Shown here: positions 4,586 to 62,067 of the stretch, piece by piece | Numbering within the stretch: the stretch's first letter is position 1 | How the letters are laid out: each line of letters begins with the position of its first letter | Assembly (NCBI GenBank): GCA_016186145.1 | Contig: JACPMF010000004.1 | Coordinates: forward strand, 345-64,344 | DNA: 64,000 nucleotides | Direction: 5' to 3' | Origin: Candidatus Sungiibacteriota bacterium | GTDB lineage: Bacteria; Patescibacteriota; Minisyncoccia; Sungbacterales; SURF-37 | Position numbers and translations under genes: made by a program | The notes under the pieces: generated by a model | Told to the model about the DNA's origin: nothing | What the model saw: only the letters and a program-made list of their open reading frames with translations | Databases searched by the model: none

Positions 4586-4716
4586 GTCAACCCCGTTAGA
4601 AGTAGTGCGCGTGCTCGTGGATTCATCGATATGCATTACTACCGGATGTATTTACCAGCTTCGTTTTATCGGTTTTGTGAAAAGAATTCGCGCACGCGAC
4701 TTCTAACGGGGTCAAC
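4586..4716. repeat. MITE-like element, CCCGTTAGAAG terminal-inverted-repeat family (divergent copy A)
   Basis: Left end gtcaaCCCCGTTAGAAGT and right end ACTTCTAACGGGGtcaac; sub-terminal GC-rich inverted repeats (gtgcgcgtgc / gcgcacgcgac). Confidence 0.6.
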
Positions 4717-8878: not shown

Positions 8879-9991
8879 TTAGAACCTAGTTGACGGAACA
8901 ATAATGTGCGGGTCGGGACTATTTCTACCGGCAAGCCATAAAGGATAGTCCTCTTCAACTTTAGTATAAGGATCAAGCCCAGCCGCTTTCCGAATTTGGT
9001 TAACGCTTTCTTGAAAAACTTCGCCAAGCTCAACGGTAGCCAGACGAGTCTCTACCACCATGGCGCTTCCATCTTCCAAAACTTCTTGGTTACGAATCTT
9101 TTGCTGCAATTCCGGGGAAAACTTCAATGCCCCGATTTCTGGACTCGACAGAGCTTTCGGCAACTCGTAGTCGGCAGGAAGAATAAGAAATTCCGTACCC
9201 TTTAACCGCGTAAGCACTGAAGACGAGCGAGCTCTTCCTTCATACATCTGCGCAAAAAGATGCGCTCGCTTAAAGAACGGAAGCGGCGGGCCAAACCCTC
9301 CGCCGGGAAGCGGAAGACTTGTGTATACATCATAGAACGACTCAAAACTAGCGATGACCTCAACCACTCCCCTGCCGTTATCAAAAGCCCTGAACGAAGA
9401 GCCGCGAAAGACGTTTATCCATTGGTCGTCAAAATCCTGAAGCCGCAACGCGCTTTCGTAAAGCAACGACCGCCGCTCTCGCAACATGGGAATTACATTA
9501 AGCGGCGGGACGCCACGAAAGACGTTCGCCGCGCGCTTCAAATTCCATTCCCTTAAATCTCGAAGAAACTTCGGATCAGTAATCGGCAATCCCTCTTTAA
9601 GCGCGCGCCTTAAGCAAGCGGTCATAGCGGTGGCACCGCTGTGAAGACGCGCCGGCTGCTCATGGATCAAACAGCGATACACTCTCTTTTTCTCATCAAC
9701 CTTTTCGTAATGTCGAAGATCCTGCCCACAGGCCCGGCATTCCGGCCACAGGGTCTGAAACTTGGTCTTTGTAACCGCATCGGTGAAATAAAAATTGATG
9801 GTATCAACCATGCCAAGAAACTGTACAAACTCAAGATCGTCTTCCGGGTAAATACCATCGCGCCACGACGGAGCCACGAGTTCCTGCAAGGCAATCTTTT
9901 CGGCAAACTCCCGCATCTTGTCAAAGTGCGGCCACGCATAAAAACGCGGGTAGTTTGAATAAGCGCTCAGCCGCAAAAGATATGGATTCAT
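8879..9991 (-). CDS. hypothetical protein (start placed at MNPYLL; the ORF-track N-terminal extension is spurious)
   Basis: The long ORF has a 5-prime extension that runs into MITE copy B. The ATGAAT start sits exactly at the element boundary. Confidence 0.5.
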   Translation of the reverse strand: MNPYLLRLSAYSNYPRFYAWPHFDKMREFAEKIALQELVAPSWRDGIYPEDDLEFVQFLGMVDTINFYFTDAVTKTKFQTLWPECRACGQDLRHYEKVDEKKRVYRCLIHEQPARLHSGATAMTACLRRALKEGLPITDPKFLRDLREWNLKRAANVFRGVPPLNVIPMLRERRSLLYESALRLQDFDDQWINVFRGSSFRAFDNGRGVVEVIASFESFYDVYTSLPLPGGGFGPPLPFFKRAHLFAQMYEGRARSSSVLTRLKGTEFLILPADYELPKALSSPEIGALKFSPELQQKIRNQEVLEDGSAMVVETRLATVELGEVFQESVNQIRKAAGLDPYTKVEEDYPLWLAGRNSPDPHIIVPSTRF

Positions 9992-10115
9992 CCCGTTAGA
10001 AGCAGGTCGCGGTAACGCCTCATTTCTATTGCTCCTATCTGTCATTGTTTTGCCTCCTGTCTTCCATATCCCGCTGATTTTTAGAGCTGCGACCGCGGCT
10101 TCTAACGGGATTCAT
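9984..10115. repeat. MITE-like element, CCCGTTAGAAGC family (copy B)
   Basis: ggATTCAT|CCCGTTAGAAGCaggtcgcggt ... accgcgGCTTCTAACGGG|ATTCATcc; terminal inverted repeats with ATTCAT direct flanks. Confidence 0.7.
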
Positions 10116-14587: not shown

Positions 14588-14706
14588 ATTCATCCCGTTG
14601 GATTTTATAAAAATGGGCACTGCAGGGATCGGACCTGCGGCCTTCACAATGTCAATGTGACGCTCTACCACTGAGCTAAGTGCCCTAGAAAATCTAACGG
14701 GATGTC
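14588..14706. repeat. 16-bp inverted repeat (CATCCCGTTgGATTTT / AAAATCTAACGGGATG) bracketing tRNA-Val; ends resemble the MITE terminal inverted repeats
   Basis: Left 14588-14603 and right 14691-14706; 15/16 matches; the left end is preceded by ATTCAT. Confidence 0.6.
14614..14685 (-). tRNA. tRNA-Val (anticodon GAC)
   Basis: GGGCACTTAGCTCAGTGGTAGAGCGTCACATTGACATTGTGAAGGCCGCAGGTCCGATCCCTGCAGTGCCCA; cloverleaf folds, but the T-loop is TCCGATC (C at position 55, unusual). Confidence 0.75.
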
Positions 14707-15609: not shown

Positions 15610-15849
15610 TTATGACAAAAAATGTCTTTTCAAGAACGCCCTGCCGGAGCCTGATTTTAGATATTTTTCGAAATTGAAAGCAACATATTTATTTTGAAAA
15701 GCGAAATAAGAAATTAATTTGATCGGCAATCTATTTTTTGTGGCTGGAACTTGCGCTTTATTATGTCTTACGATTCTGTCTTTTAGATCAGAAGTACATC
15801 CAATATAAAATCTTCTATCACAACATTCTAAAATATAGACATAGTTCAT
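15610..15849 (-). CDS. GIY-YIG nuclease superfamily protein (small, UPF0213-like)
   Basis: YVYILECCDRRFYIGCTSDLKDRIVRHN matches the GIY-YIG core; terminator hairpin downstream. Confidence 0.7.
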   Translation of the reverse strand: MNYVYILECCDRRFYIGCTSDLKDRIVRHNKAQVPATKNRLPIKLISYFAFQNKYVAFNFEKYLKSGSGRAFLKRHFLS

Positions 15850-16200: not shown

Positions 16201-16239
16201 AATTAAAAACTAAAATGCGAAACTGACTAAAAGAAATCC

Positions 16240-16928: not shown

Positions 16929-17505
16929 AATAATTCACAAGTATATTCCGAAGTTTTGTGTTATTAAAATAAACAGTCATAACACCATATTTTGTTTTCT
17001 CTCTGTAAGTTCCAATACTCCTAGCCGGAGTAATTGTTGGTTTCATAAACTGTTTTCTGCCAACACCTAATTGATTCTGCCAAAATACTATAGCATGATT
17101 TGGCTTAATATCGCTAAAAATTTGTAAGCCAAATTTTAATTTCGCCTTAGAAACACCACAGCATCTATGCAAAAACTTAATAAATATTTTAATTAGTGCT
17201 GGGTCTGTATTTCCAAGCCGTACCTGATTTTTACTCTTTTTACTTCCTTCACCCCAGTATAGTCCGACGCCGAGTCCAAATAATTTTGCATCTTCTAAGG
17301 TTGTGGGGATACGAATAATAAACGGGTCTCCCTTCGGATTATGCTTTATATACATTGCCTGAGAGATTGATCGTTTTTTAATTTTATGTTTCGCAAACCA
17401 GTAATTAACCTTGTGTTCTGAGCACTTAAGAAAAGAGGCGATTTCATGAACAGATTTTTTGTCGGCTTCATAAAGTTTTTTCAATTGTTTTGCCGGAAAC
17501 GACAT
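16888..17505 (-). CDS. LAGLIDADG-like homing endonuclease / HTH protein (single motif); 3-prime end overlaps tRNA-Thr by about 40 nt
   Basis: N-terminal HTH-like region, LFGLGVGLYWGEGSKK resembling a LAGLIDADG motif, and basic patches. Confidence 0.45.
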   Translation of the reverse strand: MSFPAKQLKKLYEADKKSVHEIASFLKCSEHKVNYWFAKHKIKKRSISQAMYIKHNPKGDPFIIRIPTTLEDAKLFGLGVGLYWGEGSKKSKNQVRLGNTDPALIKIFIKFLHRCCGVSKAKLKFGLQIFSDIKPNHAIVFWQNQLGVGRKQFMKPTITPARSIGTYREKTKYGVMTVYFNNTKLRNILVNYCLGSSVVEQLHGK

Positions 17506-17566
17506 TAACTTAATTATAAACCATACATTAAGGTGGTCAACAACAACCTTTAAAAGGTACTACTTA

Positions 17567-17650
17567 TGCCGAGGGTGGGATTTGAACCCACAAGTCCTTG
17601 CGGACACAGACTTCTAAGGCCTGCGCGTATTCCATTTCCGCCACCTCGGC
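17567..17650 (-). tRNA. tRNA-Leu (anticodon UAG)
   Basis: Class II tRNA GCCGAGGTGGCGGAAATGGAATACGCGCAGGCCTTAGAAGTCTG...GTGGGTTCAAATCCCACCCTCGGCA; 84 nt. Confidence 0.8.
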
Positions 17651-17703
17651 AAATTTCAACAGATACTTATACCATTCCGCCAGCCGCCCGCCGTAAACGA
17701 ATT

Positions 17704-21283: not shown

Positions 21284-21748
21284 TTACAGCCTACACGCTC
21301 CTGAAGGAAGCTCGTTCCACGGAGCAAGCGTGCCAATGAATTTGCCGGCCGAACTTGTATCAAGATTGCCGGTAAGAACCTTAATTATAGTGCTAACTAA
21401 AAGCCATGAAATAAACACTATAACAACTCCGATAATGGCATTGGTAAGAATTTTCTTTCCTGCCGTCACTCGCGACTCCGAGGCCGCGCCAAACATAATC
21501 ATAAGGCCGCCGACGACTATCATCAACCCGGCAAGAGGAATGGCTATATTCGTAATAAGAAATTTGGTGATGCGTATTCCGAGAACCGCGAGGTCACAAA
21601 TAGTACACGCCGGCTGTATCGTACCGTCAGGGTTCGTGCCACCGCAATGAACAAGGCCTTGGGCAAGGACAATAGAGGGTAGAGCAAATAATACAACTAC
21701 TAAAGCCGAGGCCAGTAAAATATAATTGCTATGACTTAAAAACTTCAT
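21284..21748 (-). CDS. TrbC/VirB2-like pilin-family membrane protein (paralog 4, longer, Cys-containing)
   Basis: Signal peptide, two Cys pairs, then the core (GLMIVVGGLMIMFGAASESRVTAGKKILTNAIIGVVIV). Confidence 0.5.
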   Translation of the reverse strand: MKFLSHSNYILLASALVVVLFALPSIVLAQGLVHCGGTNPDGTIQPACTICDLAVLGIRITKFLITNIAIPLAGLMIVVGGLMIMFGAASESRVTAGKKILTNAIIGVVIVFISWLLVSTIIKVLTGNLDTSSAGKFIGTLAPWNELPSGACRL

Positions 21749-21853
21749 GCTATATCATCAGCGAATTGCGAATCGGTCGCGAATATGCGAATCTTACGAT
21801 TCATTATTATTCGCAAATTCGAAGGGATTCGTTATTCGCTGATTTATCTCATA
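21749..21853. promoter_or_regulatory. about 100-bp imperfect palindromic intergenic element rich in GCGAAT/ATTCGC hexamers (copy 1)
   Basis: atcagcgaattgcgaatcggtcgcgaatatgcgaatc...gattcgttattcgctgat; about 85% identical to 23716-23808; sits directly upstream of a minus-strand gene start. Confidence 0.5.
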
Positions 21854-23169: not shown

Positions 23170-23715
23170 CTACTTTTTATAAAGTAACCCGTAATGATGG
23201 GACCCCGCCTCAAATTCTCGGTCGTAAGAAAACCCGGCTCGCGAAAGAAAAGATTGCACGGCCCTCTTGTTTAACCGCATATCCGAAGGTGGACCGCCGG
23301 GAAACGGAGTTTCATCCCACTCAATAACCGCGACCCGGGCTCCTATTTTCAAGATTCGATGCGCTTCCATCAAAACTTCAAACTTTTTTTCAACCTGAAA
23401 AAGAATATTAGAAATCACGACAAGATTCACGGACTCGGCCGGCAAATGCGTTCCCTCCGAAAGTTCGAGATCAGCCCACACGGTCTCAACATTCAACAAA
23501 TGCTCAAGCCGCGCCCTTGATTTAACCAGATCAAGCGCCCGCTTTTGGACATCGAATGCAAAAACTTTTCCTTCCTCCCCGACCCGTCGCGCAAGAGGAA
23601 GTGTGTAAAAACCCGCCCCCGCTCCGAAATCGGCGACATGCATTCCTTTAATCACCTCGAGGTAACTAACGACACGCTCCGGGTTTAAGAAAGATGTGGG
23701 TTGAGAAATATTCAT
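23170..23715 (-). CDS. class I SAM-dependent methyltransferase
   Basis: Motif I VADFGAGAGFYTLPLA; 181 aa. Confidence 0.8.
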   Translation of the reverse strand: MNISQPTSFLNPERVVSYLEVIKGMHVADFGAGAGFYTLPLARRVGEEGKVFAFDVQKRALDLVKSRARLEHLLNVETVWADLELSEGTHLPAESVNLVVISNILFQVEKKFEVLMEAHRILKIGARVAVIEWDETPFPGGPPSDMRLNKRAVQSFLSRAGFSYDREFEAGSHHYGLLYKK

Positions 23716-23808
23716 GTTATATCATCAACGAATTACGAATCAATCGCGAATGTACGAATCTTACGACCCATTGCTATTCGTAAAAGATTCGTTATTCGTT
23801 GATTTGCT
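23716..23808. promoter_or_regulatory. GCGAAT/ATTCG-rich palindromic intergenic element (copy 2)
   Basis: atcatcaacgaattacgaatcaatcgcgaatgtacgaatcttacg...gattcgttattcgttgat; paralog of 21749-21853. Confidence 0.5.
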
Positions 23809-35222: not shown

Positions 35223-35720
35223 CTACGGAGTGACAAGGACTGTGAATCCGAGCTTGAGCGGCTCTCCGGCATTATTCTCTATAATTATTGCCCTATGAAT
35301 TCGACCGATCCCCGCAGGACCGTGGGCCGCCGGGTCAAAAACGACGTTAACAACGGCTTCCGCACCCGAAGCTATCGCTTCTTTAATGCTCGGCGAAAAT
35401 CCGTGCCCCGGCATGCCGTACGGACCGAAAACCTTACCCCCCACTTCAAGCGTGGCGCTGGTGCACATGCACGAGGTATACATTTTTTCTATAACCACCG
35501 ATTCTTGCCCGGTGTTTTTGATCCGAAACAAATGACTAACATTCCCGGCCGCCATCGAAACCGTACCAAAGTCAAAATCTTTCTCTTCTGCGCTTATTGC
35601 GCCGGTGGAACCCGAAACCGAAGGGGTGACAATACCACCCTCCGGAGAAGGACGCATGGCCCAAACAATCCCGGCAAAAGCAATTACTCCCGCCGCGATT
35701 CCAATAGTTATTTTATTCAT
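35223..35720 (-). CDS. DUF1573-like secreted/anchored protein
   Basis: FDFGTV...NTG motif; ATGAAT start directly abuts MITE copy C. Confidence 0.55.
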   Translation of the reverse strand: MNKITIGIAAGVIAFAGIVWAMRPSPEGGIVTPSVSGSTGAISAEEKDFDFGTVSMAAGNVSHLFRIKNTGQESVVIEKMYTSCMCTSATLEVGGKVFGPYGMPGHGFSPSIKEAIASGAEAVVNVVFDPAAHGPAGIGRIHRAIIIENNAGEPLKLGFTVLVTP

Positions 35721-35862
35721 CCCGTTAGAAGCAGATCGCGATTAAATATCCACAATCTGCCTTTTTAATTATTTAAGCGTTAATAAAGATTTGTGAATCC
35801 CGAATAATCTCACAAGCAATCGCACCTGCCTACCGACAGGCAGGGCTTCTAACGGGATTCAT
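35715..35862. repeat. MITE-like element, CCCGTTAGAAGC family (copy C)
   Basis: ATTCAT|CCCGTTAGAAGCagatcgcg...cagGGCTTCTAACGGG|ATTCAT; internal hairpin cctgcctaccgacaggcagg. Confidence 0.75.
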
Positions 35863-35953
35863 ATGTTTTTAGGTTAGAGATTGGAATTAACAACAAGCCC
35901 CTTTTAAGGGACAAAGAAAAGACGCTCGACAAGCTAGTTACTGGTAACTAGTT

Positions 35954-36364
35954 TTATCGGCGCAGAAGAAAAGAGGCCGGACTGTTTTCGTGCAATGCAA
36001 GCCAATGGGTTAGTTCCCGTCGAACCAACCACGAAGAATCTAAAAATCGGTATGCCGCAAACGGCCGATTGAATAGAAAGTAAAACTGGAATCTTGGTAT
36101 TACGCCAAACCAAAAAACAATAAAAAACAAAAGCAAAAGAAGCCCGCCGATGCTGTCGCTAAAAATGGCCGCTGAAAAACTTCTAAAAGTGTCGAGATGA
36201 AACTTCGCAAATGAAAAAGTATTCCACCCTTCAGGACAATCTATTCCTTTGGCGATCGCCACGATACATCCGCCGTGGTCGTTTCCATGCCCCATAATCA
36301 TAAACCCAAAAACGGCAATTCCGACAAAACCGATAAGCACAAAAAGTGTAAAGAGTGGCTTCAT
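35954..36364 (-). CDS. hypothetical small membrane protein
   Basis: 136 aa, two or three TM segments; ATGAAG start abuts MITE copy D. Confidence 0.4.
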   Translation of the reverse strand: MKPLFTLFVLIGFVGIAVFGFMIMGHGNDHGGCIVAIAKGIDCPEGWNTFSFAKFHLDTFRSFSAAIFSDSIGGLLLLLFFIVFWFGVIPRFQFYFLFNRPFAAYRFLDSSWLVRRELTHWLALHENSPASFLLRR

Positions 36365-36584
36365 CCCGTTAGAGACCCGCCTGCCATCGCCTTTGTGTGA
36401 AGAAAGGAGGCGGTTCTATACTTTAACTTACTAATGTGTGATTTCTCAACTCTATAGAAGGGCATATGGCGGGCAGGTAGGACGCGGACGCACAAAACAC
36501 CCAACGCCCTATATTGTTATTGCTTACAAATTTTTACTCTTCTATAAAATTTTATTCGCGTCCGCGATCTCTAACGGGATTCAT
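36360..36584. repeat. MITE-like element, CCCGTTAGAG/CTCTAACGGG family (copy D, 225 bp)
   Basis: cTTCAT|CCCGTTAGAGacccgcctgcc...gcgtccgcgatCTCTAACGGG|ATTCAT. Confidence 0.7.
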
Positions 36585-36752
36585 CCCGTTAGAAGCAGAT
36601 CGCAATCGCATAATTGCTATCTGAATACATTATTGTTCTATATCCCAATAATATTTTATGAATCTCGTAACTTCTACAAGCGATCGCGCCTGCCTGCCTA
36701 CTGGCAGGCAGGCCGACAAGCAGGGCTTCTAACGGGATTCATAACCACAGTA
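36578..36752. repeat. MITE-like element, CCCGTTAGAAGC family (copy E, tandem to D, sharing the ATTCAT junction)
   Basis: ATTCAT|CCCGTTAGAAGCagatcgcaatcgc...gcctgcctgcctactggcaggcaggc...GGCTTCTAACGGG|ATTCAT. Confidence 0.75.
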
Positions 36753-36829
36753 TAGCAAAGCGTGAGAAAAACACAAAAAGGAAATGGACCTCGTCCGTGC
36801 CAGTTGGAACCAGGTTATACAGTTTCTGC

Positions 36830-37239
36830 TTACTTGGCAGAAACTGCCAACTCTTGGAGTTTCTTCAGAGCTTCTTCTACAGAGTTGACTATAAAACCAG
36901 TTTTCTTTACGAACTCAATAGACCATTTCGGGTTCCTGTCTTCATGCCAAATGATAATCAGTTTATTACAAAAGTCACCAGGCATTTTCGTGTTGTTCGC
37001 ATAAAAATAACCTATTTCTATCCACGTTCCTTCCGAAGTCGCTAAACCAGGATTGGCAACCATAAAGTCAGCACTTTTTATTCCATTCAAATCATCAGGA
37101 AAAAATGTATCTGGAGAAGTTTGGTCTGAATCAAATTCATAATCGTGAAAATCAAAACTGTCTAACTTCTTGAATTCTTCCTTCCAATCATTTTCGTATT
37201 CGTTAGGTTGACCAGCAAGATATACTTTTTTCTTTTGCA
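36830..37239 (-). CDS. nucleoside 2-deoxyribosyltransferase-like protein
   Basis: KVYLAG...W...F..., then ADFMVANPGLATSEGTWIEIGYFYA; start placed at MQKKKVYLAG. Confidence 0.55.
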
Positions 37240-37544
37240 TAGATATACATGGATACAAGCATTTTAATATGGATTTGGTGGTCATTATACGATAAAATCA
37301 GAACCTTTTTTGAGCAAAATCCCGATTGATTTACCTAGTCATTCGGGTAGTCATTCACCCTACCTCGGAATGACTACCTTGCGTTTCTAAATCTGCCCAT
37401 CATTCCTATCTTTTCTGACTTAACTACCTCTAAAATCAAAGTCCGACTTTCCTCCTCCGGAGGACTGGCTCGCCGCCCTGCTGGTCGGCTCGCTTGGTCG
37501 CCGAAATTCCTCCCCTCAAACCCCTCCTTCCGGCTCCTTTTCCC

Positions 37545-38420
37545 CTAATTCTTGAGCCTCGAATTCAGGACTTCTTTAAGGGTAATCCCATCTTTGCTTT
37601 TCCATTCCAGTGGGCCAGAAGCAGATCTTCCTAATATGACACCACATGCTGCACTTGAGCTATCAAATACATAATCGTCAGTAAAGACAAGGGTGGTACC
37701 CTGGACACTTAATCGTTGCATTGCCACAAGTTCATCCTTGAGTTTTTTATACGGATGAGTCTGAAAAGACGGCGTTTCTTCTAATGAGGCCGTAGAAGAT
37801 TTCAAAACTTTCATTTTTCCGTCTTCTAAGAGATGGCCCGTAGCTATGATATTGGATCCTTTTTTGCAGATAAAAACCAAAGGGGTAACAGGTGTTTTCC
37901 CAGAAGTAAATTCACTTTGCACAAATATATCGTATCCGAGCAGAGGCATAATTGTTGCTAGGTTTTCATAAAACACCTCTAATCCACTTACATCTTCTTT
38001 TGGGATCGTAGGCACGCCAGGATTGTTAGCATTTTTTAGGTTACACTTCCCGATTTTCTTGAGACGTTCAATACAAACACTTTCGAGGTATTGAATTCCT
38101 GTTTTTGTTAATGATCCATCTTGACTTACAAAAACAACAACATCCTGCCACCAATCTTTTTTATAATCGTGATCTCTAATTCTTTCCTTGAAACCATCAG
38201 CTTCACCAACGTACACATTGAGCAATCCACCTTCATCAGAGCTACCAATGAGAAAGTAAACGCAAGCTCCACTTTCTATTTCAGGCAACGTAATGATTTC
38301 ATTTAAAGCGTTACGAGGGCCACAAATGGCTTTGCCACTCCACTGATCAATCCTCACTTCCCTTACTCCCTTCGGAAGTCCTGCTGCCAAAAAAATTGTG
38401 ATCTTCTTACCTTGATTCAT
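37545..38420 (-). CDS. GIY-YIG nuclease domain protein with a C-terminal DUF4357-like domain
   Basis: CVYFLIGSSDEGGLLNVYVGEADGFKERIRDH (GIY-YIG-like); overlaps the methyltransferase stop by 14 bp. Confidence 0.55.
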   Translation of the reverse strand: MNQGKKITIFLAAGLPKGVREVRIDQWSGKAICGPRNALNEIITLPEIESGACVYFLIGSSDEGGLLNVYVGEADGFKERIRDHDYKKDWWQDVVVFVSQDGSLTKTGIQYLESVCIERLKKIGKCNLKNANNPGVPTIPKEDVSGLEVFYENLATIMPLLGYDIFVQSEFTSGKTPVTPLVFICKKGSNIIATGHLLEDGKMKVLKSSTASLEETPSFQTHPYKKLKDELVAMQRLSVQGTTLVFTDDYVFDSSSAACGVILGRSASGPLEWKSKDGITLKEVLNSRLKN

Positions 38421-39603
38421 AAGTTTTTTTCGGTTTTAGAAGCAGCACTAGTTCTTCCGACTTTACTCTAGATTTCTTCTCGCGGTTATGTTTATTAAAC
38501 TTATTATTGCCACCTAAGGTACTGAATCTGCCAATCACATGCTTGTGAATGCGGCTTTTATTTTTATCCAGATTAAAATATTTTTTAGCCAATTCAATAA
38601 CCTTATCTCCAGACAATCCATTGCTAGATTTTCCTTTAGGAAAGGTAAAAATAACTTTAACCTTCTTTCTCGACAGGCCGGATAAGAGTTGCTCTAAAGC
38701 TTTATATGATTGTCCCGCATTACTAAATTCTGATTGTGGACGCTCAGATATATCCGGATAACGTCCAATACCGGTAACTTCTCCGCAGTAACCACGTGCA
38801 ATTGTTTCAAGTACATGATAAAAACGACTATATTGGACACCGGAATAGGGCGGATCAAGAAGAACCAAATCTCCTCTTTTTAATTTAGGTATTAATTTTT
38901 TAGCGTCTGAAACCATCGCCCTACCTTTTACTTTCGCGTGTAGAGGGACGAGTTCTTTTAACGCGCTATCGCAGGATTTAAAAATATCAGTGCGCCATGC
39001 AATTTCAATAAATTTTCCGGCCCCGGCAGTTGGCTGAAAAGGTTGGGCGGTATGTCCAGGAGCAGCAGCAGCCCTAGAAGCAGCAATTATGGTTGCTGCT
39101 AAGCAAATATCTCTGTATTTAGTTTGCTTAGGTAATGTATTTAAAAGATAGTCGATGGTAATGGCTTGTTTCGGACTAAAATAATGGCCTCCGTAAGCAC
39201 GCCAAACGGGACCAATCTTAGAGGGAGTTTTGCAAAGTTTCCTTGCCGCATTAACTCTCAACTTTATTTTTCCGGAATACTTTTGATCTACTCCATTGGC
39301 TTTATTTAGAAGCTTCGAAGTATTTAGTTTCTTTTTTGCTTTCTCTATCCAAGCTCTCTTTAAATATTCCGCATCGAATACCTTAGTGCGTCCAATTACG
39401 GCTCTTGCGAGAACAACAGCGTATTTTTGCAGATCACCTGCAATAATTTCGCCTTTAAAATTCAGATTTTTAGCAACAAAATTTATTACTCCTCCGGAAC
39501 CGCAAAATGGGTCAATGAATCTATTGGCATACGGAAGCTGCTCACGGAGTAAGTCTCCGAGACCATTGCTCAACATAAACCTTTTTGAACCCATGTATTT
39601 CAT
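38407..39603 (-). CDS. DNA N6-adenine methyltransferase, Dam-like (D12 class)
   Basis: Motif I FIDPFCGSGGV and motif IV LLDPPYSG; N-terminus KYMGSKRF as in Dam; ATGA overlap with the upstream gene. Confidence 0.85.
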   Translation of the reverse strand: MKYMGSKRFMLSNGLGDLLREQLPYANRFIDPFCGSGGVINFVAKNLNFKGEIIAGDLQKYAVVLARAVIGRTKVFDAEYLKRAWIEKAKKKLNTSKLLNKANGVDQKYSGKIKLRVNAARKLCKTPSKIGPVWRAYGGHYFSPKQAITIDYLLNTLPKQTKYRDICLAATIIAASRAAAAPGHTAQPFQPTAGAGKFIEIAWRTDIFKSCDSALKELVPLHAKVKGRAMVSDAKKLIPKLKRGDLVLLDPPYSGVQYSRFYHVLETIARGYCGEVTGIGRYPDISERPQSEFSNAGQSYKALEQLLSGLSRKKVKVIFTFPKGKSSNGLSGDKVIELAKKYFNLDKNKSRIHKHVIGRFSTLGGNNKFNKHNREKKSRVKSEELVLLLKPKKTYESR

Positions 39604-40940
39604 AGGCAAAGTTGCGAAAGAGCTATTCTTTCGCATCCCGATAGCGCCAACAGCTCTGTTGCGAAATTTGAACGCCATTGGTAGTGATTGTTTACAGAAG
39701 AAGAACTACTGCTCATACTTGCCAGCGCTTCTTCCACTTCAATCCACATATCAGAGATGGGATTTACTTGCCCGGGCTCCCATAGTCCATAATTTTCTCC
39801 TAATGTTTCCCACCAAAATTTTATGTCGTTTCTTGAGATACGAGCGTTTTCAATCATAGTCATCCCTGCTCCTGTTGCTAACCTTAAAAGTAGAGTCGCC
39901 CTGCTCAACATCTGAATATGATAATCAGGATCAGTCGTTTTCCCCTTTTTACTTGCTTCGACAATCAACATAGGATCTCTTTGCTGTGTTTTTCGACTAA
40001 AAATCTGAGTTAGGGTGGTTAGTTCAGGATCACTTATGCCAAGATCTGTAAGTATTTTTCTAATCTGAGATTGCGAGAGTTGCCCGTTATTATATTTTTC
40101 CCAGCTCAATCTTAATAAAAAGGTATCTGCGACAAAACCACCAGTTCCATTCATGCTACACATGCGCCATATATTTTCTACTATCCCCAAAGAATTCCTG
40201 ATCTGAATAGAATTCCTAAAACTAAGGTCGTTCAAAATACCGCTTGGTCTATAGCTTGCGTGTTCACGTGCAGATTGATCTATTCCCAATGTTGTTATGT
40301 CGTACCCCCAATGTTTAAGCCAATCTTTTGCTAAATAATTGAGTGGCGCTGTTGAGATCTCAGAAAACCAAGTTTCTAAAGTTATACTATTAGGCCGAAT
40401 AATTTTTTGAAATAGTCTTCCAGAATCAGGGCGACCGAGCCAATCAATAAATTGCTTTCTTACTAGTGCGTGGGTTTTTTCTGAAATCGGCCCGTAAATA
40501 TCTGAAGACTTTCCATTAGCACCCACTATTGAAAAATGTTTTGCACTGAAAACACCTATGCCATCACTTGCAAGTAAAGACATCACAGCTCTCAGTTGGG
40601 CATAATATGCAAAATGCTTACAAGCCTGGATGTCGCCAACGGCATGACTAATTATAGCTTTACCCAAGAAACTCCAACCATCCACGCAGTGTAAGGGAAC
40701 TGAAGCGGCTATGTACTCTGCTAATTGAGTTTTTTTAGGTCCCGTTATTCGGTGAGGTGCTCTTCTGGGACAATCCTTTTCTATTTTTTCCGTACAGTTT
40801 TTTGCATATCTATTTTGAACACCAAGCCAGCCACCCCTTACAAAGTGTCTTTTAAGACGATTAAAGGTTTCTTGGGTAGCTATCCGAGAATAATGTCTAG
40901 TTGAAAATTTATCTGGCATTCTTGGCATCTTCTTTAGCAA
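39600..40940 (-). CDS. hypothetical protein (446 aa) inside the defence cassette
   Basis: No recognisable motif; translationally coupled between the DGQHR and methyltransferase genes. Confidence 0.5.
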   Translation of the reverse strand: MLKKMPRMPDKFSTRHYSRIATQETFNRLKRHFVRGGWLGVQNRYAKNCTEKIEKDCPRRAPHRITGPKKTQLAEYIAASVPLHCVDGWSFLGKAIISHAVGDIQACKHFAYYAQLRAVMSLLASDGIGVFSAKHFSIVGANGKSSDIYGPISEKTHALVRKQFIDWLGRPDSGRLFQKIIRPNSITLETWFSEISTAPLNYLAKDWLKHWGYDITTLGIDQSAREHASYRPSGILNDLSFRNSIQIRNSLGIVENIWRMCSMNGTGGFVADTFLLRLSWEKYNNGQLSQSQIRKILTDLGISDPELTTLTQIFSRKTQQRDPMLIVEASKKGKTTDPDYHIQMLSRATLLLRLATGAGMTMIENARISRNDIKFWWETLGENYGLWEPGQVNPISDMWIEVEEALASMSSSSSSVNNHYQWRSNFATELLALSGCERIALSQLCL

Positions 40941-42444
40941 ATCCTAAAATCTTATATGTTTCTCTGGCAAGACTGCCAAAATCTTTACTAATAAAAAGGT
41001 GTTTTAACAGTTGACGCCTAAATTGTTTATAACCACTACCTCCTCGATAGGAAAGTTTAAGAACAAGATCATCTTCGCTTAATCCTTTCGCCGCTGAAGA
41101 TCTCCAATCAAATTTAGACAATTCTTTGGCAAGTTTAAATACAAAATCAGCAAGTATTTTTTTCTTCTTTAAATCTTTAAGTTCCGATGCTGAGCTCGAC
41201 TCCGCGTTCGGATTCCACTCTTGTAATCTCAACTTTTCTCGATTGATAAATAGTAGATCATTTGTAACATTTAAAACCACAGAAATTCCTTGGTCATTGT
41301 TAAGCATTGTGTAAGGACCAACAAACGCAGGATCTCCGCTGACTGCCTTTTTATATTCTTGTTTCTTGGCATCGCGCAACTCAAGAGCCCACTTTGCCTT
41401 AGATTTTCTAACAGCGTCCCTTAATTCGTTCCAGAGATAAATAAGCAGGGCCGCTTGTTGGCTTTTATTCCAAGGAATTGCAATTTTATCCTGACCAACC
41501 GGTGCTCCAAATAGTCCGCCGATAGATATGCCTCTACCCTCAAATGACTTAACGTATGTTTTTAATAAAGCTCTTACCCAAGCTGCTTGAGTAACAGAGG
41601 GACCACCACTTTCCCCAAGCATGTTGATTCTATCGTACCAAGCACTATCCTTTTCTGACCATAGTATCTCAACTAGCTCTTGTGCTCGAGTTTCTCGGTA
41701 AACCTTATGGCCTTCAAATCTCTCAAGCCAATCTTCTGTCCGAAGTAAGGGGTACAGATCAAAAGCAAGGCTTGGGTTAATTCTTTTGGGCTTAATATTG
41801 ATTGTCCAAAAAAGATACGCTTGCCAACTTATATCAAGACCGTAAAATGCAACAACTGGAAGTTCATAATCTTCAGCAATACTTTTATCCTCAAACGCTA
41901 ACAGTCGGTGTTGCCCATCAATAATCTCAATGGGAAGTCTCTGTTTGGCCTGCCAGGTATTTGAATTATTAAAAGAAGCTGGCAACTGAACCTCGGCTAT
42001 GTTTCCTGCTAAATCCCTTACAGTCACTAGATCGTTCGGATCAACCCTTTCTCCATCACGCGTATCTTTGGCAGCTAAAATATTTACAACGATAGCTGTA
42101 GGTAACCAGCCTGGCTTTTGTAAATCATCAAACCTTTTCTCCTTACGTTGGGAATCAGTCAAATCTGACCAGGGATATCCGTATTTTATGTATTTCGCAA
42201 TTTTTTCTGATCGTGACGGTTCGTGAGCTCGTTGTAAACCGGTCCGCGACGCTAGACTCCTGCGATAGACACCTGAGAGTACCTGAAGTTGACGGGCGGA
42301 AAGTGAAAAAACGTAAAAATGATTTTGAGGCTCTCTACGATGCTCATTATTACTCCACTGAACAGAATCCCAGCCTTTAAGCCATTGGTTCACTTTTAAG
42401 GCCTGTATCTTATTTGGTTTGCGAGGCTGGGACTTCTTTTTCAT
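40909..42444 (-). CDS. DGQHR-domain protein (DndB-like, ParB-like nuclease superfamily)
   Basis: Exact IIDGQHRLLAF motif; 511 aa. Confidence 0.8.
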   Translation of the reverse strand: MKKKSQPRKPNKIQALKVNQWLKGWDSVQWSNNEHRREPQNHFYVFSLSARQLQVLSGVYRRSLASRTGLQRAHEPSRSEKIAKYIKYGYPWSDLTDSQRKEKRFDDLQKPGWLPTAIVVNILAAKDTRDGERVDPNDLVTVRDLAGNIAEVQLPASFNNSNTWQAKQRLPIEIIDGQHRLLAFEDKSIAEDYELPVVAFYGLDISWQAYLFWTINIKPKRINPSLAFDLYPLLRTEDWLERFEGHKVYRETRAQELVEILWSEKDSAWYDRINMLGESGGPSVTQAAWVRALLKTYVKSFEGRGISIGGLFGAPVGQDKIAIPWNKSQQAALLIYLWNELRDAVRKSKAKWALELRDAKKQEYKKAVSGDPAFVGPYTMLNNDQGISVVLNVTNDLLFINREKLRLQEWNPNAESSSASELKDLKKKKILADFVFKLAKELSKFDWRSSAAKGLSEDDLVLKLSYRGGSGYKQFRRQLLKHLFISKDFGSLARETYKILGFAKEDAKNAR

Positions 42445-42515
42445 ATAATTTATTTAGATTTTCTACATCTATATAATAGCAAGTTGAGATCTGCTAAGCA
42501 TGTTTCTTTATAATA

Positions 42516-42731
42516 TTAAAATTTGGCAAAAAAGTTTCCGATTTTTAAATTTAAAGCCTTCGCAATTTTTTCTATATTTTCCAATGTTATATTTTTCTCG
42601 GCTCTCTCAATCATGCCGATGTAAGTCCTATGAACGCCAGCGCGGGTGGCTAGTTTTTCTTGAGATAATCCTAATTTAGTTCGCTCCTCACGAACTCTTT
42701 TGCCAAATTTGATTAAGATTTCTCGTTTCAT
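42516..42731 (-). CDS. XRE-family HTH transcriptional regulator (controller-protein-like), first gene of the cassette operon
   Basis: 71 aa; canonical XRE HTH (LGLSQEKLATRAGVHRTYIGMIERAEKNITLENIEKIAKAL). Confidence 0.8.
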   Translation of the reverse strand: MKREILIKFGKRVREERTKLGLSQEKLATRAGVHRTYIGMIERAEKNITLENIEKIAKALNLKIGNFFAKF

Positions 42732-43032
42732 AGTTGATAACTATAGTATATGCACTTGCTAACTTTGGTGCTACATACTATAGTTAGCATAGTTTGAGGG
42801 GAGGAATTTCGGCGACCAAGCGAGCCGACCAGCAGGGCGGCGAGCCAGTCCTCCGGAGGAGGACTTTGTGGAAAACAGTAGAAGTGTGGAATGGGGGCGT
42901 AGCGTAGTGAAGTCGGACTTTGATTTTAGAGGTAGAAACGCAAGGTAGTCATTCCGAGGTAGGGTGAATGACTACCCGAATGACTAGGTAAATCAATCGG
43001 GATTTTGCTCAAACGGCGTCCGAACAGTCTCA

Positions 43033-43098
43033 TAAAGACACCACAATTCAAAACTTTTCGACTTGTCCCCGGTGAAAAAGGCGAAAAGTTTTGAATTG
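43033..43098. repeat. long hairpin (ccacaattcaaaacttttcg ... cgaaaagttttgaattgtgg) between tRNA-Ala and the right repeat of the cassette
   Basis: 20-bp perfect inverted repeat around a 26-nt loop. Confidence 0.5.
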
Positions 43099-43170
43099 TG
43101 GACCGGATGGGATTCGAACCCACGGTCTCCTCAATGCCATTGAGGCGCTTTACCACTAAGCTACCGGCCC
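43099..43170 (-). tRNA. tRNA-Ala (anticodon GGC)
   Basis: GGGCCGGTAGCTTAGTGGTAAAGCGCCTCAATGGCATTGAGGAGACCGTGGGTTCGAATCCCATCCGGTCCA. Confidence 0.85.
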
Positions 43171-49845: not shown

Positions 49846-49930
49846 AAACTGAAACATGGTGTCCCTCTCTCTAGAGAGGGACTTATTTCCAAGGAAGTAT
49901 TTAAAAGCTATCTTAAAAATCATTTTTTCC

Positions 49931-50027
49931 GCGTTTTTCCGCGTAGCATTCCGCACTTATCCGCGGAGTCTCCGCGGAAGTGTGCAGATTGCAACGCAGA
50001 TTTATGCGGAAATTGAATTTTGAGATG
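49931..50027. repeat. about 95-bp inverted repeat, left arm, flanking the yeaH-like gene
   Basis: About 88% identical to the reverse complement of 51638-51728; contains the palindrome ccgcggagtctccgcgg. Confidence 0.7.
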
Positions 50028-50268: not shown

Positions 50269-51630
50269 ATGCGGAAAGACAGCAAGAAAGAAACGGCTGG
50301 AAATGAACACGCCACCAATCTTGATGTTCTCGGCATGGAACTCGCGCTTAAAGCGAGAATTGAAAGACGTATTGCGAACTGGAACGGACAAGGAGTTACC
50401 GGCGCTATCACCTCTTTGGAGTCCCTCCAGGACCTCTTGAAGAGGGACAAAGAAAGACAGCAGGACGGTTTTCCTTCCAAAATAAAATTCAGAAGGGTTC
50501 TCGCGGCAAATAATCGAGTAGTCAACGTTCCGTATGTCGACGAAGAAAAGCTGTTCCATGGACCATTTGAACCGAAGGGCGCAAAGCTTGTCGCCCAAAC
50601 CGCTGATTTTCTCGAGCTTCCGGACATTGACGAAGCCACCGGACACGGAGACGGCGATGTCGGCGACGTAATCGGTGAAGTGCCGATGCCCGGCAGGGGC
50701 GGTGGCGGCGATGACGGCGACGAAGGCGATGGAAACGGATCACAGCCCGGCGCCGGAGATGAAGACGCGGATCACGCGCTTGAAGAAGAAGCGTATGAGT
50801 TGGGAAGACGGCTGATGGAACAACTCAAGCTCCCCAACCTCAAAGACAAGGCAAGAAAAGTTCCTACCGATGAATACACCTACGATCTTACCGACCGCCA
50901 TCGCGGTTCGGGACAGGTTCTCGACAAAAAAGAAACATTGCGGCGCGTTGTCAAAACAAACCTGATTCTCGGCAGAATAGAAAAAGACGCCGTCGATACG
51001 AGAAAAATGATCGTCAGCCCGGGAGATCTGGTATTTCGAGTTCTTTCCCGAGAACGGGTCTGGAAAGCGCAAGCCTTGGCATGTTTTCTCCGAGACTACT
51101 CCGGTTCAATGTGGGGGGATCCTACAAAAGCCCTCGTATCCCAGCACCTTATGATTTACGCGTGGCTTCTGGTTCAATATGAAAAACGCGTTATCCCGCG
51201 ATTCTTCGTTCACGACCATAACGCGCGCGAAGTGAGCGCAAAAGAATACTTCGGACTCGGGTCTTACGGCGGAACACTTATCGCTTCCGGCTACAAAAAA
51301 ATCAACGAAGTAGTTGAGGGTGAAGGCCTTGAGAACGACTACAACATTTATGTCTTCCAAGGCACGGACGGCGATGACGGCGACGAAGGCGAATTCGCCC
51401 TTCCGGAGCTCAACAAAATCCTGAATTATGTAAGTCGCATGGGAGTCACCCTGTTTAAACATCCTTACTACACAAGCCAGGGCCAGAAAACAATCTTTGA
51501 GCAATACATTGAAAAAGGCGGCATCCTGGAAAGAAAGGATGTCTTCCGCATGCATACCATGCCGCGATATACCAACGTGACCGAAGAGATGAATGTTGAA
51601 GCGCTTCGCACGCTCATTGCCCAAGACTAA
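50269..51630 (+). CDS. DUF444 family protein (YeaH/YhbH-like, vWA-type), PrkA partner
   Basis: Position between prkA and spoVR; Gly/Asp-rich low-complexity segment typical of YeaH. Confidence 0.75.
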   Translation: MRKDSKKETAGNEHATNLDVLGMELALKARIERRIANWNGQGVTGAITSLESLQDLLKRDKERQQDGFPSKIKFRRVLAANNRVVNVPYVDEEKLFHGPFEPKGAKLVAQTADFLELPDIDEATGHGDGDVGDVIGEVPMPGRGGGGDDGDEGDGNGSQPGAGDEDADHALEEEAYELGRRLMEQLKLPNLKDKARKVPTDEYTYDLTDRHRGSGQVLDKKETLRRVVKTNLILGRIEKDAVDTRKMIVSPGDLVFRVLSRERVWKAQALACFLRDYSGSMWGDPTKALVSQHLMIYAWLLVQYEKRVIPRFFVHDHNAREVSAKEYFGLGSYGGTLIASGYKKINEVVEGEGLENDYNIYVFQGTDGDDGDEGEFALPELNKILNYVSRMGVTLFKHPYYTSQGQKTIFEQYIEKGGILERKDVFRMHTMPRYTNVTEEMNVEALRTLIAQD

Positions 51631-51637: not shown

Positions 51638-51728
51638 CTCAAATTCAATTTCCGTGTAAATCCGCGTTGCAATCTGCGTGTTTCCGCGGAGACTCCGCGG
51701 ATCAATGCGGAATGCTACGCGGAAAAAC
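51638..51728. repeat. about 95-bp inverted repeat, right arm, flanking the yeaH-like gene
   Basis: See 49931-50027. Confidence 0.7.
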
Positions 51729-51829
51729 GCTGATATAGAACTTTTGAGATGGCTTCAAGAAGCCAAGGTTGAGCCGGGCCCCGACTCCGTCGGGGCTTTT
51801 CTATAACGGTTACAGAAAGAAAGGAGGAG

Positions 51830-62065: not shown

Positions 62066-62067
62066 AA

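Follow-up and report, generated by a model that had tools for sequence, protein, structure and literature searches.

Five short inverted-repeat copies in the analysed DNA, a 64,000-nucleotide stretch (hereafter the window) of a Candidatus Sungbacteria (CPR) contig, are probably non-autonomous, MITE-like derivatives of a minimal mobile gene, one found widely in Patescibacteria. Judging from the sequences, the source of the repeats would be a tiny gene for a GIY-YIG nuclease in which the two coding ends themselves make up the inverted repeats, and the best explanation, held with reasonable confidence, is a selfish nuclease gene of about 275 bp accompanied by short derivatives lodged at start codons.

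Repeat copies in the window and their host genes

Five copies bounded by inverted repeats and one related arm pair are present in the 64 kb of the window, every copy in minus orientation, which bears out the sequence-only reading that they form a bounded, MITE-like family with several members and with terminal inverted repeats. The arm sequence CCCGTTAGAAGC occurs six times exactly when both strands are considered; with up to two mismatches it has 13 matches against 5.1 expected, a number reached in none of 100 shuffles of the window. A profile built exclusively on copies from other genomes recovered all five window copies (E 3.5e-19 to 8e-9), with the minus strand scoring better, and found no sixth copy in the window. 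The copies measure 118–214 nt. They contain only short relay ORFs and no transposase gene, and the RNA folding that had been proposed for full copies predicts strong structures (z -3.4 to -6.9).

Copy A (4592..4710, minus strand; 119 nt), a T variant with arms CCCGTTAGAAGT / ACTTCTAACGGG (profile E = 8e-9; fold z = -6.9), is intergenic, lies away from any start codon and is flanked by GTCAAC on both sides (GTTGAC in the minus-strand reading). The minus-strand ORFs 8879-9991, 35223-35720 and 35954-36364, on the other hand, each start at the ATG immediately 3' of CTAACGGG, and the zero spacing claimed earlier for the genes beginning at 9991, 35720 and 36364 is thereby confirmed. Copy B (9992..10109, minus strand; 118 nt; profile E = 3.5e-19; fold z = -3.4) belongs to the main subfamily, has the P2 helix CGCGGTC / TACCGCG and adjoins the start of the queuosine-salvage gene (Q_salvage protein; 8879..9991, minus strand), a start at 9991 on which the NCBI and Logan gene calls agree. 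It carries two upstream ORFs, uORF1 of 26 codons, whose stop is the TAG within TAGGAG, and uORF2 (MRRYRDLLLTG), whose TGA overlaps the host ATG. A mechanically called ORF at this place, 8879-10045, runs into copy B, the real start being 9991; host ORFs may be mis-extended into the element by gene callers.

Copy D (35721..35856, minus strand; 136 nt; profile E = 2e-17; fold z = -6.0) precedes a DUF1573 protein gene (35223..35720, minus strand), the first gene of a closely spaced minus-strand run. In gene orientation it comprises 5' CCCGTTAGAAGC, a GC hairpin CCTGCCTGTCGGTAGGCAGG, an AT-rich interior and 3' AATCGCGATCT-GCTTCTAACGGG, with the distal flank ATGAAT at 35862-35857 and the host ATG at 35720-35718. 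Copies F and E stand in tandem, F upstream, with one ATGAAT (36584-36579) common to both, before a gene for a 136-aa hydrophobic protein without Pfam match (35954..36364, minus strand). Copy E (36365..36578, minus strand; 214 nt), a GAGAC/GAGAT variant with arms CCCGTTAGAGAT / GTCTCTAACGGG, adjoins the host ATGAAG at 36364 and contains an ORF of 34 codons that ends in ...SLTG-TGA, overlapping the host ATG. Copy F (36585..36736, minus strand; 152 nt) has its own distal ATGAAT at 36742-36737 and a GC-hairpin variant in common with copy D. The tandem had been recognised in the sequence-only reading; its outer end, flank included, lies at 36742 and not at 36752.

The related ends formerly noticed around tRNA-Val were also recovered, as arms of 13-15 nt (ATCCCGTTGGATTTT / AAAATCTAACGGGAT; 14594..14701, minus strand) on either side of tRNA-Val(GAC) (14614-14685). 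The flanks of this pair are unlike each other (TGACAT / ATGAAT) and hence it is not a simple insertion. Recurrent embedding of tRNAs between arms was considered and set aside, the window tRNA-Val being the only one enclosed among 51 tRNAs examined.

A nuclease-coding family across Patescibacteria

An 18-mer spanning arm and flank was found at no fewer than 120 loci, nearly all in diverse Patescibacteria. A census of 120 genome loci among the matches listed, together with the window, yielded 129 bounded elements, with a length peak at 114-117 nt and a second class of about 76 nt. In 99 of the 129, from the CPR genomes listed, an ORF of at least 60 codons begins exactly at the ATG that follows CTAACGGG (the 3' flank), in one orientation only, and abutment on start codons is therefore systematic. 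The motif search envisaged in the sequence-only reading, extended here to other genomes, upheld the multi-copy nature of the motif and showed that it is not peculiar to this genome: the ends are common to many CPR lineages. The host genes are dozens of unrelated ones, for example murG, ftsA, ssb, topA and rpmJ. Small size, terminal inverted repeats, target-site duplication and multiple copies with genome-specific subfamilies, hallmarks of MITEs, are found in the family. Rfam 15 at gathering thresholds returned tRNAs only, positions 35600-36900 gave no match at E up to 10, and a plasmid BLAST of the region gave none either. No published description of the element was found in the literature on MITEs, GIY-YIG/UPF0213 proteins and Patescibacteria; the nearest leads are non-intron insertions reported in CPR rRNA genes, among them short ones (under 200 bp) and ones bearing GIY-YIG ORFs (PMC11270868), and Slx1-like domains described as 'recently inserted' into other genes (PMC1564403).

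The elements are flanked on both sides by a 5-bp, ATGAA-like direct repeat. The ATTCAT direct flanks described earlier are thus present, but they are not two equivalent copies: the gene-side flank consists of the host ATG and a variable second codon, and the distal one is nearly always ATGAAT (82 of the 99 start-abutting elements across genomes). The flanking repeat behaves as a target-site duplication with a marked target preference, along the lines suggested in the sequence-only reading. Rare flank variants co-vary on the two sides, with matched pairs ATGAG/ATGAG (twice), ATAAA/ATAAA, ATAAG/ATAAG, GTAAA/GTAAA, ATGTA/ATGTA and GTTGA/GTTGA. Insertion sites have only about 5 bp in common, and wider conservation of the flanks was not seen.

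Compensatory changes occur in the paired arms. In P1 (12-14 bp) every column has at least 96% of its cells paired, and the variants include the combinations GAAGC/GCTTC, GAAGT/ACTTC, GAGAC/GTCTC, GAGAT/ATCTC and CACG/CGTG. One column of P2 has 20 A-T and 23 G-C pairs, and P2 cells are paired in 89% of cases compared with 12-35% in shifted registers. Mismatch cells in the arms are G.T in 34 and A.C in 27 instances, with no strand bias, and since the two types are about equal the pairing is not assignable to RNA over DNA.

Presence and absence were compared at orthologous sites, in every case between orthologues at only 40-75% protein identity; no transposition event, excision product or strain-level difference between filled and empty sites came to light. 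The murG site is filled in four genomes; that of topA is empty in the window, is occupied by a short copy in two loci (L027, L110) and, in the P0005 contigs, by a full one. At empty orthologous sites the start contains ATGAA once, and at ssb and other genes the N-terminus of the host protein does not differ between filled and empty sites. One filled site (L006) has an upstream flank that aligns with the sequence immediately 5' of the start codon in its empty counterpart (L065). The enrichment at start codons could arise from selection or from a longer target.

Elements with the same ends as the short copies occur in a coding version of 272-278 bp that holds a single ORF of 93-95 aa. In L032, L054 and L063, for instance, a 275-278-nt version consists of one ORF running from MNPVRD to RFLSLTG-TGA. 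The partner with the same termini and flanks as the short copies encodes a GIY-YIG nuclease (Pfam PF01541, E 8e-17 to 2.5e-16) and no recognised transposase. Compared with solved structures, the family profile matches UPF0213 (1ZG2, 8.6e-11; 1YWL) and SLX1. Its invariant columns include Y13, Y24, G26, R32, R34, H38 and E58/E70, so that the catalytic domain with the conserved Tyr, Arg and Glu of the GIY-YIG superfamily is present, and the protein is the catalytic core only, with no separate DNA-binding domain. Conserved MNPVRD and RFLSLTG termini were found in 2296 protein clusters.

The terminal inverted repeat of the coding version is formed by its own first and last codons, N-P-V-R-D (AAT CCC GTT AGA GAC) being the reverse complement of L-S-L-T-G (CTG TCT CTA ACG GG-). 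The nuclease ATG and TGA come from the two copies of the duplicated ATGAA, with the TGA sharing bases with the host ATG (ATGA), a 4-nt stop/start overlap with the next gene in every context examined. Among the best 80 metagenome copies, 78 have both arms, which lie within the terminal codons of the nuclease gene itself, with lengths fixed at 272/275/278 nt; in about 60, ATGAAx and a long ORF come immediately after the copy. Near-identical full-length copies at different loci were not found, the best pairs with unrelated flanks being 85-87% identical, and exact-protein look-ups and pairwise comparison placed each nuclease in a single context, with no identical protein in a second one.

No arm-bearing nuclease gene lies within the window. 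The only GIY-YIG gene there is a distant, stand-alone homologue of 79 aa without arms (15610..15849, minus strand; 44% identical to the arm-bearing family). In their interiors the short copies have kept next to nothing of the nuclease ORF (one case, E = 0.001, over the first 40 codons), protein similarity being essentially confined to the termini, and their derivation from it accordingly rests mainly on common ends and flanks.

Start-codon junctions and competing explanations

The 3' junction of the short copies reads TAA-CGGG-ATG-A (CTAACGGGATGA), which closes both non-host frames, first by TAA and next by TGA, no more than 7 nt from the host ATG. For the TAA frame the median open length is 23 codons, as against 11 in shuffles. 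An upstream ORF from the distal ATG remains open to the end in 20 of 36 elements in the TAA frame (0.155 in shuffles) and in 11 of 29 in the TGA frame (0.108), while its in-frame fusion to the host is seen in 1 of 29 (0.11). The excess of open upstream frames suggests translational coupling. The host gene is probably still translatable despite the element; termination-reinitiation at the TAA/ATG/TGA junction is the more likely route to it, and we infer that coupling keeps host genes expressed. Coupling is not the whole story, as copy D has no ATG-initiated relay ORF and does have an internal promoter-like site.

The sequence-only reading had suggested, as one possibility, a leaderless start at the host ATG; we rejected this, since the bases at the distance required of a -10 box (-12 to -7) read GCTTCT, which is no such box. 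Where a leaderless-type -10 box is present, at about one-third of sites, it is 5' of the distal ATGAAT and outside the element: a box 5-8 nt upstream of the distal ATG was found at 40 of 126 sites, compared with 9-19 in shifted controls. At the F+E tandem, a promoter-like TTGTGT-16 nt-TATACT (36749..36776, minus strand; -35 weak, 3/6) ends 6 nt 5' of the distal ATGAAT, a geometry that is that of a leaderless start. Promoter-like sites also occur inside copies D (TTCACA-18-AATAAT, 35797..35768, minus strand) and E, and the main subfamily has a weak positional -10 signal, with TANNNT hexamers peaking at -50 and -53 from the host ATG, so the element may harbour an internal promoter. A terminator-like hairpin (35912-35897) lies upstream of copy D, and the operon behind this copy therefore needs a promoter. 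Shine-Dalgarno sequences before the distal ATGAAT were dropped as a candidate signal, with 15 of 126 sites as against 16-20 in shifted controls. Their absence, pointed out before, has no special meaning here, such motifs not being enriched at these starts at all.

According to the explanation that we favour, the autonomous form would be the ORF alone, encoding a 93-95-aa UPF0213/SLX1-like GIY-YIG nuclease in 272-278 bp. The upstream ATGAA would supply its ATG, and the downstream ATGAA its TGA while re-creating the host ATG (GGG-ATGA-A). ATGAA is the commonest start context (Met-Lys or Met-Asn) in these AT-rich genomes, which would account for surviving insertions lying exactly on start codons. 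A nuclease so placed would inherit the host initiation signals, the -10 box of a leaderless start in about one-third of cases and an operon-internal junction in many others, and the host gene would be translated after the nuclease ORF by termination-reinitiation. The short forms (~115 nt and ~76 nt) would keep both ends and open upstream frames, thereby acting as a translational relay. The nuclease would itself mobilise the elements, possibly by recognising the arms folded into a hairpin or cruciform; known GIY-YIG cleavage patterns do not predict a duplication of 5 bp. A more specific reading, which we put forward tentatively and at somewhat less than even confidence, is that the 272-278-bp form is an autonomous DNA element made of a single 94-aa Slx1-like GIY-YIG gene, with a start and stop acquired only on insertion, both being supplied by the duplicated ATGAA target, and terminal codons that could double as the hairpin/cruciform substrate of a structure-specific nuclease. 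Such an element would colonise start codons, often leaderless ones, CPR-wide, and its short derivatives would serve as relays before essential genes.

It is unlikely that the short copies are merely in-place decayed remnants of separate full-length nuclease insertions, left by a homing-type course of invasion, degeneration and loss, rather than mobilisable MITEs. Ends and flanks identical to those of the coding version would agree with decay, and so would the weak similarity of one short copy to the first 40 nuclease codons and the intermediate sizes of copy E (214 nt) and of 146-nt copies in L037. Decay predicts broad sizes and unrelated interiors, however, whereas lengths peak sharply at 114-117 nt and members of the main subfamily from different phyla agree in a second helix, in a 4-nt bulge and in words of the interior. 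Three copies of about 110 nt with few base differences at three different genes in 8 kb (L012), and tandem short copies in the window, L017, L111 and L113, likewise speak against it. DDE transposition is classically recognised by terminal inverted repeats together with a short duplication of the target, and we know of no GIY-YIG enzyme that acts as a transposase; both points would suit an ordinary MITE moved by a DDE-type transposase, the GIY-YIG ORF being cargo or an unrelated gene with acquired TCCCGTTAGA ends. We regard this as very unlikely. A search of 1.3 Mb of loci for larger insertion sequences between arms (250-5000 bp) returned only the 275-nt nuclease form and chance pairs, with no DDE-type IS between such ends and, at 0.3-5 kb, no element that carries an ORF, and an ORF with arms inside its own terminal codons and a fixed length in 78 of 80 genes is hard to explain as cargo.

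A host expression module instead of selfish DNA, in which an RNase III site made of P1 (12-14 bp) stacked on P2 (7 bp), or a promoter in the interior, would give an mRNA starting at or just before the AUG, so that the element would itself drive the gene in the way proposed by the sequence-only reading, appears quite unlikely. The strong predicted folds, the promoter-like sites in copies D and E, the TANNNT peaks, the terminator-like hairpin upstream of copy D and the conserved position upstream of murG in four genomes would favour it, and RNase III is retained in CPR genomes (PMC12641178). Against it stand the segment immediately 5' of the host ATG, which has no -10 box, the lack of an Rfam match even at E up to 10 and the mismatch types without strand bias, while patchy occurrence among orthologues, co-varying flank duplications and the coding version point to insertion and not to an ancestral regulatory element. 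The same mechanism could nonetheless operate on top of mobility. The core motifs of attC sites are GTTRRRY and RYYYAAC, and attC repeats of chromosomal integrons are of similar size to the ~115-bp copies. The arms GTTAGAA / TTCTAAC and the size lend an integron-like recombination site separating gene cassettes a resemblance only, and we hold this to be most improbable, the copies being scattered before murG, ftsA, ssb, topA and rpmJ with no cassette arrays, the order of the core-like motifs being inverted relative to attC, and the family having its own protein-coding version. A DNA uptake sequence, IS200/IS605-type hairpin ends, a self-splicing intron and ribosome bypassing were considered and dropped.

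Implications and comparison with known systems

If the favoured explanation is true, the very small and little-understood genomes of CPR/Patescibacteria harbour an unannotated selfish element across the whole superphylum. In current annotation the short copies have no label and the long ones are called only 'GIY-YIG nuclease family protein'. The element would represent a third route to harmlessness: introns and inteins are spliced out, whereas this element would sit on the start codon, borrow the host initiation signal and hand the ribosome on via a stop/start overlap. Uncharacterised UPF0213/Slx1-like bacterial nucleases would thereby gain a biological role, possibly as a new class of mobility enzyme, and insertion sites would mark translation starts in uncultured CPR bacteria, starts with scant Shine-Dalgarno signal and often with a -10 box 6-7 nt 5' of the ATG, making the extent of leaderless initiation directly testable. 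Should the tentative autonomous-element reading also be true, it would define a new class of prokaryotic transposable element with a GIY-YIG enzyme as sole mobility protein, among the smallest autonomous elements known.

The short copies resemble bacterial MITEs co-transcribed with adjoining genes (the Correia/NEMIS elements of Neisseria, RUP, ERIC and Nezha) in their size of ~100-150 bp, terminal inverted repeats and short flanking direct repeat, and also in their many gene-adjacent copies, strong hairpin potential, possible promoters and genome-specific subfamilies. They differ in that the longer partner is a 275-bp GIY-YIG ORF and not an IS with a DDE transposase, the target is ATGAA and nearly all copies, in one and the same orientation, abut a start codon with zero spacing, a stop/start/stop junction forms the 3' end, and the ends are common to a whole superphylum and not to one genus.

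Like free-standing GIY-YIG homing genes (phage T4 Seg) and fungal mitochondrial GIY-YIG ORFs, the coding version is a selfish nuclease gene between or at the edges of host genes, which turns up beside the same host gene in separate lineages and decays with time. Unlike them, the CPR protein of 94 aa is a core only, and the gene has its own inverted-repeat ends and target duplication. Its occurrence at dozens of unrelated genes means that its spread goes beyond homing into a cognate allele. Homing endonuclease genes encode an extended DNA-recognition module for a long, specific target (more than 12 bp), and with a common target of only about 5 bp the coding version was not classed among them. 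By profile, the nuclease falls on the Slx1-like and not the I-TevI/UvrC branch (PMC1564403).

The closest sequence family is that of the UPF0213 / YhbQ / prokaryotic Slx1-like proteins (1ZG2, 1YWL; profile E = 8.6e-11), which consist of a minimal GIY-YIG domain. Unlike these, the CPR members carry MNPVRD and RFLSLTG extensions that encode the inverted repeat, and an ATGA overlap with the next gene in the contexts examined. To our knowledge no one has described these proteins as part of a mobile element. For Slx1-like domains, a recent insertion into an HsdR gene and repeated proximity to methyltransferase genes have been noted (PMC1564403).

Finally, the palindromic elements of Rickettsia (RPEs) and the translational-bypass byp elements found in Magnusiomyces mitochondria are likewise small palindromic selfish insertions in or at genes, which persist because translation neutralises their effect on the gene product. 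RPEs are translated in frame within the host protein, whereas the CPR element avoids in-frame fusion (1 of 29), and byp is skipped by ribosome hopping, whereas termination-reinitiation at ATGA or TAA-N4-ATG is suggested for the CPR element.

Element copies in the window and across Patescibacteria

The word CCCGTTAGAAGC and its reverse complement occur exactly six times in the window, and with up to 2 mismatches 13 matches are found against 5.1 expected, a count reached by no shuffle. Paired matches of this type delimit five bounded elements on the minus strand, A (4592-4710), B (9992-10109), D (35721-35856), E (36365-36578) and F (36585-36736). A nucleotide profile built from the copies of other genomes only recovered all five (E 3.5e-19 to 8e-9, the minus strand better each time) and no further copy in the window. 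Arm pairing and this independent profile thereby confirm the five inverted-repeat copies proposed in the sequence-only reading, and the zero spacing to start codons that it described at three of them was also found: the minus-strand ORFs 8879-9991, 35223-35720 and 35954-36364 begin with the ATG immediately 3' of CTAACGGG, the first with an identical start in public gene calls. A mechanical ORF, 8879-10045, runs 18 codons into copy B because the frame of the host gene, which starts directly after the element, stays open across the 3' arm; beside these elements, host genes could be given wrong starts by automatic gene callers.

The window derives from a Candidatus Sungbacteria MAG, within CPR/Patescibacteria. 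When one genome per species was scanned for GCTTCTAACGGGATKMAT, at least 120 loci were found, and those listed belong nearly all to Patescibacteria and to many of its lineages (Saccharibacteria, Paceibacterota, Levy-, Sungii-, Nomura-, Moran-, Kaiserbacteria and others), by which a strain-level repeat is ruled out. The 8-mer CTAACGGG occurs 283 times in the 120 listed loci and the window, against about 27 expected.

The related ends suspected around tRNA-Val are likewise present, the tRNA (14614-14685) lying exactly between element-type arms (14594-14701, or 14588-14707 with the flanks) in a unit of 108 nt, near the length usual for the element, with differing flanks (TGACAT / ATGAAT). It is the one such case in 51 tRNAs checked and may have arisen by recombination between two copies or by capture of cargo. 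The surrounding tRNA-rich stretch, 13408-17651 (Leu, Val, Trp, Thr, Leu), has selfish-nuclease genes between its tRNAs: a LAGLIDADG_3 ORF starting at tRNA-Leu (13412-14200, plus), an arm-less GIY-YIG gene just downstream of tRNA-Trp (15610-15849, minus) and a LAGLIDADG-like ORF overlapping tRNA-Thr (16888-17505, minus). A 5.7-kb low-GC (~0.40) island, 37309-43013, adjoins tRNA-Ala (43098-43170) and the F/E/D cluster; its end repeats of ~210 bp, 37309-37521 and 42792-43013, are inverted and 98-100% complementary. Encoding a DUF4357 protein, a D12 N6-adenine DNA methyltransferase and a DndB-like protein, the island resembles a mobile unit for defence or modification. Other inverted repeats surround single genes, 49928-50020 / 51641-51733 (93 nt, 89%) a DUF444 protein (50269-51630) and 62026-62076 / 63950-64000 (51 nt, 94%) an AAA/QueC-like protein (62068-63681). 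A tRNA-Ile with anticodon UAU, uncommon among bacteria, is located at 56027-56099.

Flanks, start codons and initiation signals

Anatomy was examined in 129 bounded elements from the 120 listed loci and the window, whose lengths show a sharp peak at 114-117 nt and another class at ~76 nt. In 99 of them an ORF of 60 codons or more begins exactly at the ATG following the 3' arm, in a single orientation only, and the abutment noticed at three copies is thus systematic across this set; the remainder are mostly tandem copies, contig ends and small genes, such as a 37-codon ribosomal protein L36-like ORF (N-terminus MKVRASVKKI). As judged from N-terminal sequences the host genes are diverse and include ssb-, ftsA-, ddl-, rsmH-, murG-, topA- and pilC-like genes.

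In gene orientation the distal flank, away from the host gene, is ATGAAT in 82/99 elements and the proximal flank ATGAAN in 88/99, the sixth base being free. Of the ATTCAT claimed on both sides, the direct repeat stands at a length of only 5 bp (ATGAA), since the distal T is determined by the element. Rare variants match from side to side (ATGTA/ATGTA, ATGGA/ATGGA, ATGAG/ATGAG twice, ATAAA/ATAAA, ATAAG/ATAAG, GTAAA/GTAAA, and GTTGA/GTTGA in window copy A), the co-variation that target-site duplication, as originally suggested, predicts. A sub-family (window 4586-4716 and two other-genome loci, L001 and L066) has G in place of A behind the 3' arm, with GTTGAC at both flanks; because these include TTGAC, the -35 consensus word, the targets of such copies may have been promoter -35 boxes and not start codons.

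Complementarity is kept across copies in the terminal arms (GAAGC/GCTTC, GAAGT/ACTTC, GAGAC/GTCTC, GAGAT/ATCTC, GAAAT/ATTTC, CACG/CGTG) and in a second, inner helix, which in the main subfamily is CGCGRTC/GAYCGCG with one column divided between 20 A-T and 23 G-C. Inner-helix cells are paired in 89%, against 12-35% in shifted registers; G.T (34) and A.C (27) mismatch cells are about equal, so the selected pairing is assignable neither to DNA nor to RNA. Single-strand folding, a check proposed with the sequence-only reading, predicts strong structures (z -3.4 to -6.9), and Rfam held no family matching the element, even at E up to 10.

The 3' junction CTAACGGGATGA places TAA and TGA in the two non-host frames, flanking the host ATG. 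Compared with shuffled interiors, 97 short elements have a median open run of 23 codons, against 11, in the TAA-ending frame. A uORF from the distal ATG is fully open in 20/36 cases in the TAA frame (15.5% shuffled) and in 11/29 in the TGA frame (10.8% shuffled), and is fused in frame to the host in 1/29 (11% shuffled). From the excess of open frames and the rarity of fusion, we take this as apparent selection for ribosome arrival and a stop beside the host AUG, i.e. putative termination-reinitiation. Copy B has a two-step arrangement, a 26-codon uORF ending in TAGGAG followed 9 nt on by an 11-codon ORF to ATGA, and copy E an ORF of 34 codons ending at ATGA; copy D has a promoter-like site inside and no such relay ORF, so the relay is not universal.

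TANNNT boxes stand 5-8 nt before the distal ATG at 40/126 sites, against 9-19 in shifted controls, peaking at 6 nt; they are frequently TATAAT or TACAAT, at some sites with an extended TG. Shine-Dalgarno-like words before the distal ATG are not enriched (15/126 sites versus 16-20 in controls). This box placement is the geometry of leaderless transcription, and the idea of a leaderless start thus has some basis at the distal ATG, outside the element, but not at the host ATG. In the window, the F+E tandem has TATACT 6 nt before its distal ATGAAT. Another ORF ends within 40 nt upstream of 77/126 sites, and in 21 its TGA overlaps the distal ATG.

Two minus-strand genes are immediately preceded by the copies of a 79-nt direct repeat (21739-21817 / 23706-23784, 82% identity) composed of repeated CGAAT/ATTCG words. 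Upstream regions rich in tacgaat/attcgta also occur at unrelated CPR loci (L076, L022), and these words could be a second CPR-wide promoter/operator family.

A coding version and its relation to the short form

Arm pairs spaced farther apart were sought among the listed loci, and three (L032, L054, L063) hold a long form of 275-278 nt consisting of one ORF, which starts at the distal ATGAAT (MNPVRD...) and ends ...RFLSLTG-TGA, the TGA overlapping the host ATG as ATGA. Pfam identifies GIY-YIG (E ~1e-16), and the family profile matches the UPF0213 structures 1ZG2 (8.6e-11) and 1YWL, then SLX1, which assigns the predicted nuclease to the minimal Slx1-like branch that PMC1564403 defined. In the protein database, 2296 clusters match at E below 1e-5; of the best 120, the majority measure 93-95 aa and have MNPVRD and RFLSLTG termini that hardly vary, and the named proteins, from Patescibacteria, are labelled just "GIY-YIG nuclease family protein". 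Over 550 relatives came from a metagenome scan. Of the best 80, 78 have the two arms within their first and last codons, compensatory variants occurring here too; most of the 80 are 272, 275 or 278 nt long, and ATGAAx with a long ORF follows directly in about 60.

All gene-call contexts retrieved show a 4-nt stop-start overlap of nuclease and host, and in one the preceding gene overlaps the nuclease ATG too. No start or stop codon is present between the duplicated pentamers: the upstream ATGAA provides the ATG, and the downstream ATGAA provides the TGA. Copies at ATAAA or GTAAA sites have neither ATG nor TGA, and no ORF follows.

Short and long forms have in common the flanks and the 10 outermost nt of each arm (TCCCGTTAGA), and short copies keep remnant codons (MNPVRS... 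and ...DLLLTG*). Their AT-rich interiors are essentially unlike the nuclease ORF, the best similarity being one case (E = 0.001, first 40 codons). The sharp length peak, the inner helix, bulge and interior words held in common, and three ~110-nt copies with few base differences at three different genes of locus L012 argue that the short form would spread as such, its copies not being independent relics.

Orthologue comparison located the element at murG in 4 genomes, at the pilC-like gene in 4/5 and at ssb in 2/4; at topA the window is empty, L027 and L110 have a short copy and the P0005 contigs the full nuclease copy. Host proteins of filled and empty genomes align from residue 1, and in the closest pair the bases immediately before the element of L006 match those immediately before the start codon of L065, which is empty. 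Neither strain-level insertion polymorphism nor near-identical full copies at separate loci were found (best pairs with unrelated flanks, 85-87% identical), and for this reason mobility is a property that we infer.

Comparison with known systems

The literature searched gave no description of this element. GIY-YIG ORFs in non-intron insertions, along with many short unexplained insertions, are reported in CPR rRNA genes (PMC11270868), and Slx1-like domains "recently inserted" in other genes have been described (PMC1564403). Structurally, the short copies qualify as MITEs. Their long partner, in which the coding ends are the inverted repeats, encodes a 94-aa Slx1-like GIY-YIG nuclease lacking a DNA-binding domain, and to our knowledge no IS family resembles it. 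Unlike classical homing endonuclease genes, the element ends in inverted repeats of its own and shows a target duplication, its common target is only ~5 bp, and it is found at many unrelated host genes. We place it with known kinds, the MITE and the selfish nuclease gene, in a new form; should the nuclease be shown to move it, it may turn out to be a transposable element of a new class.
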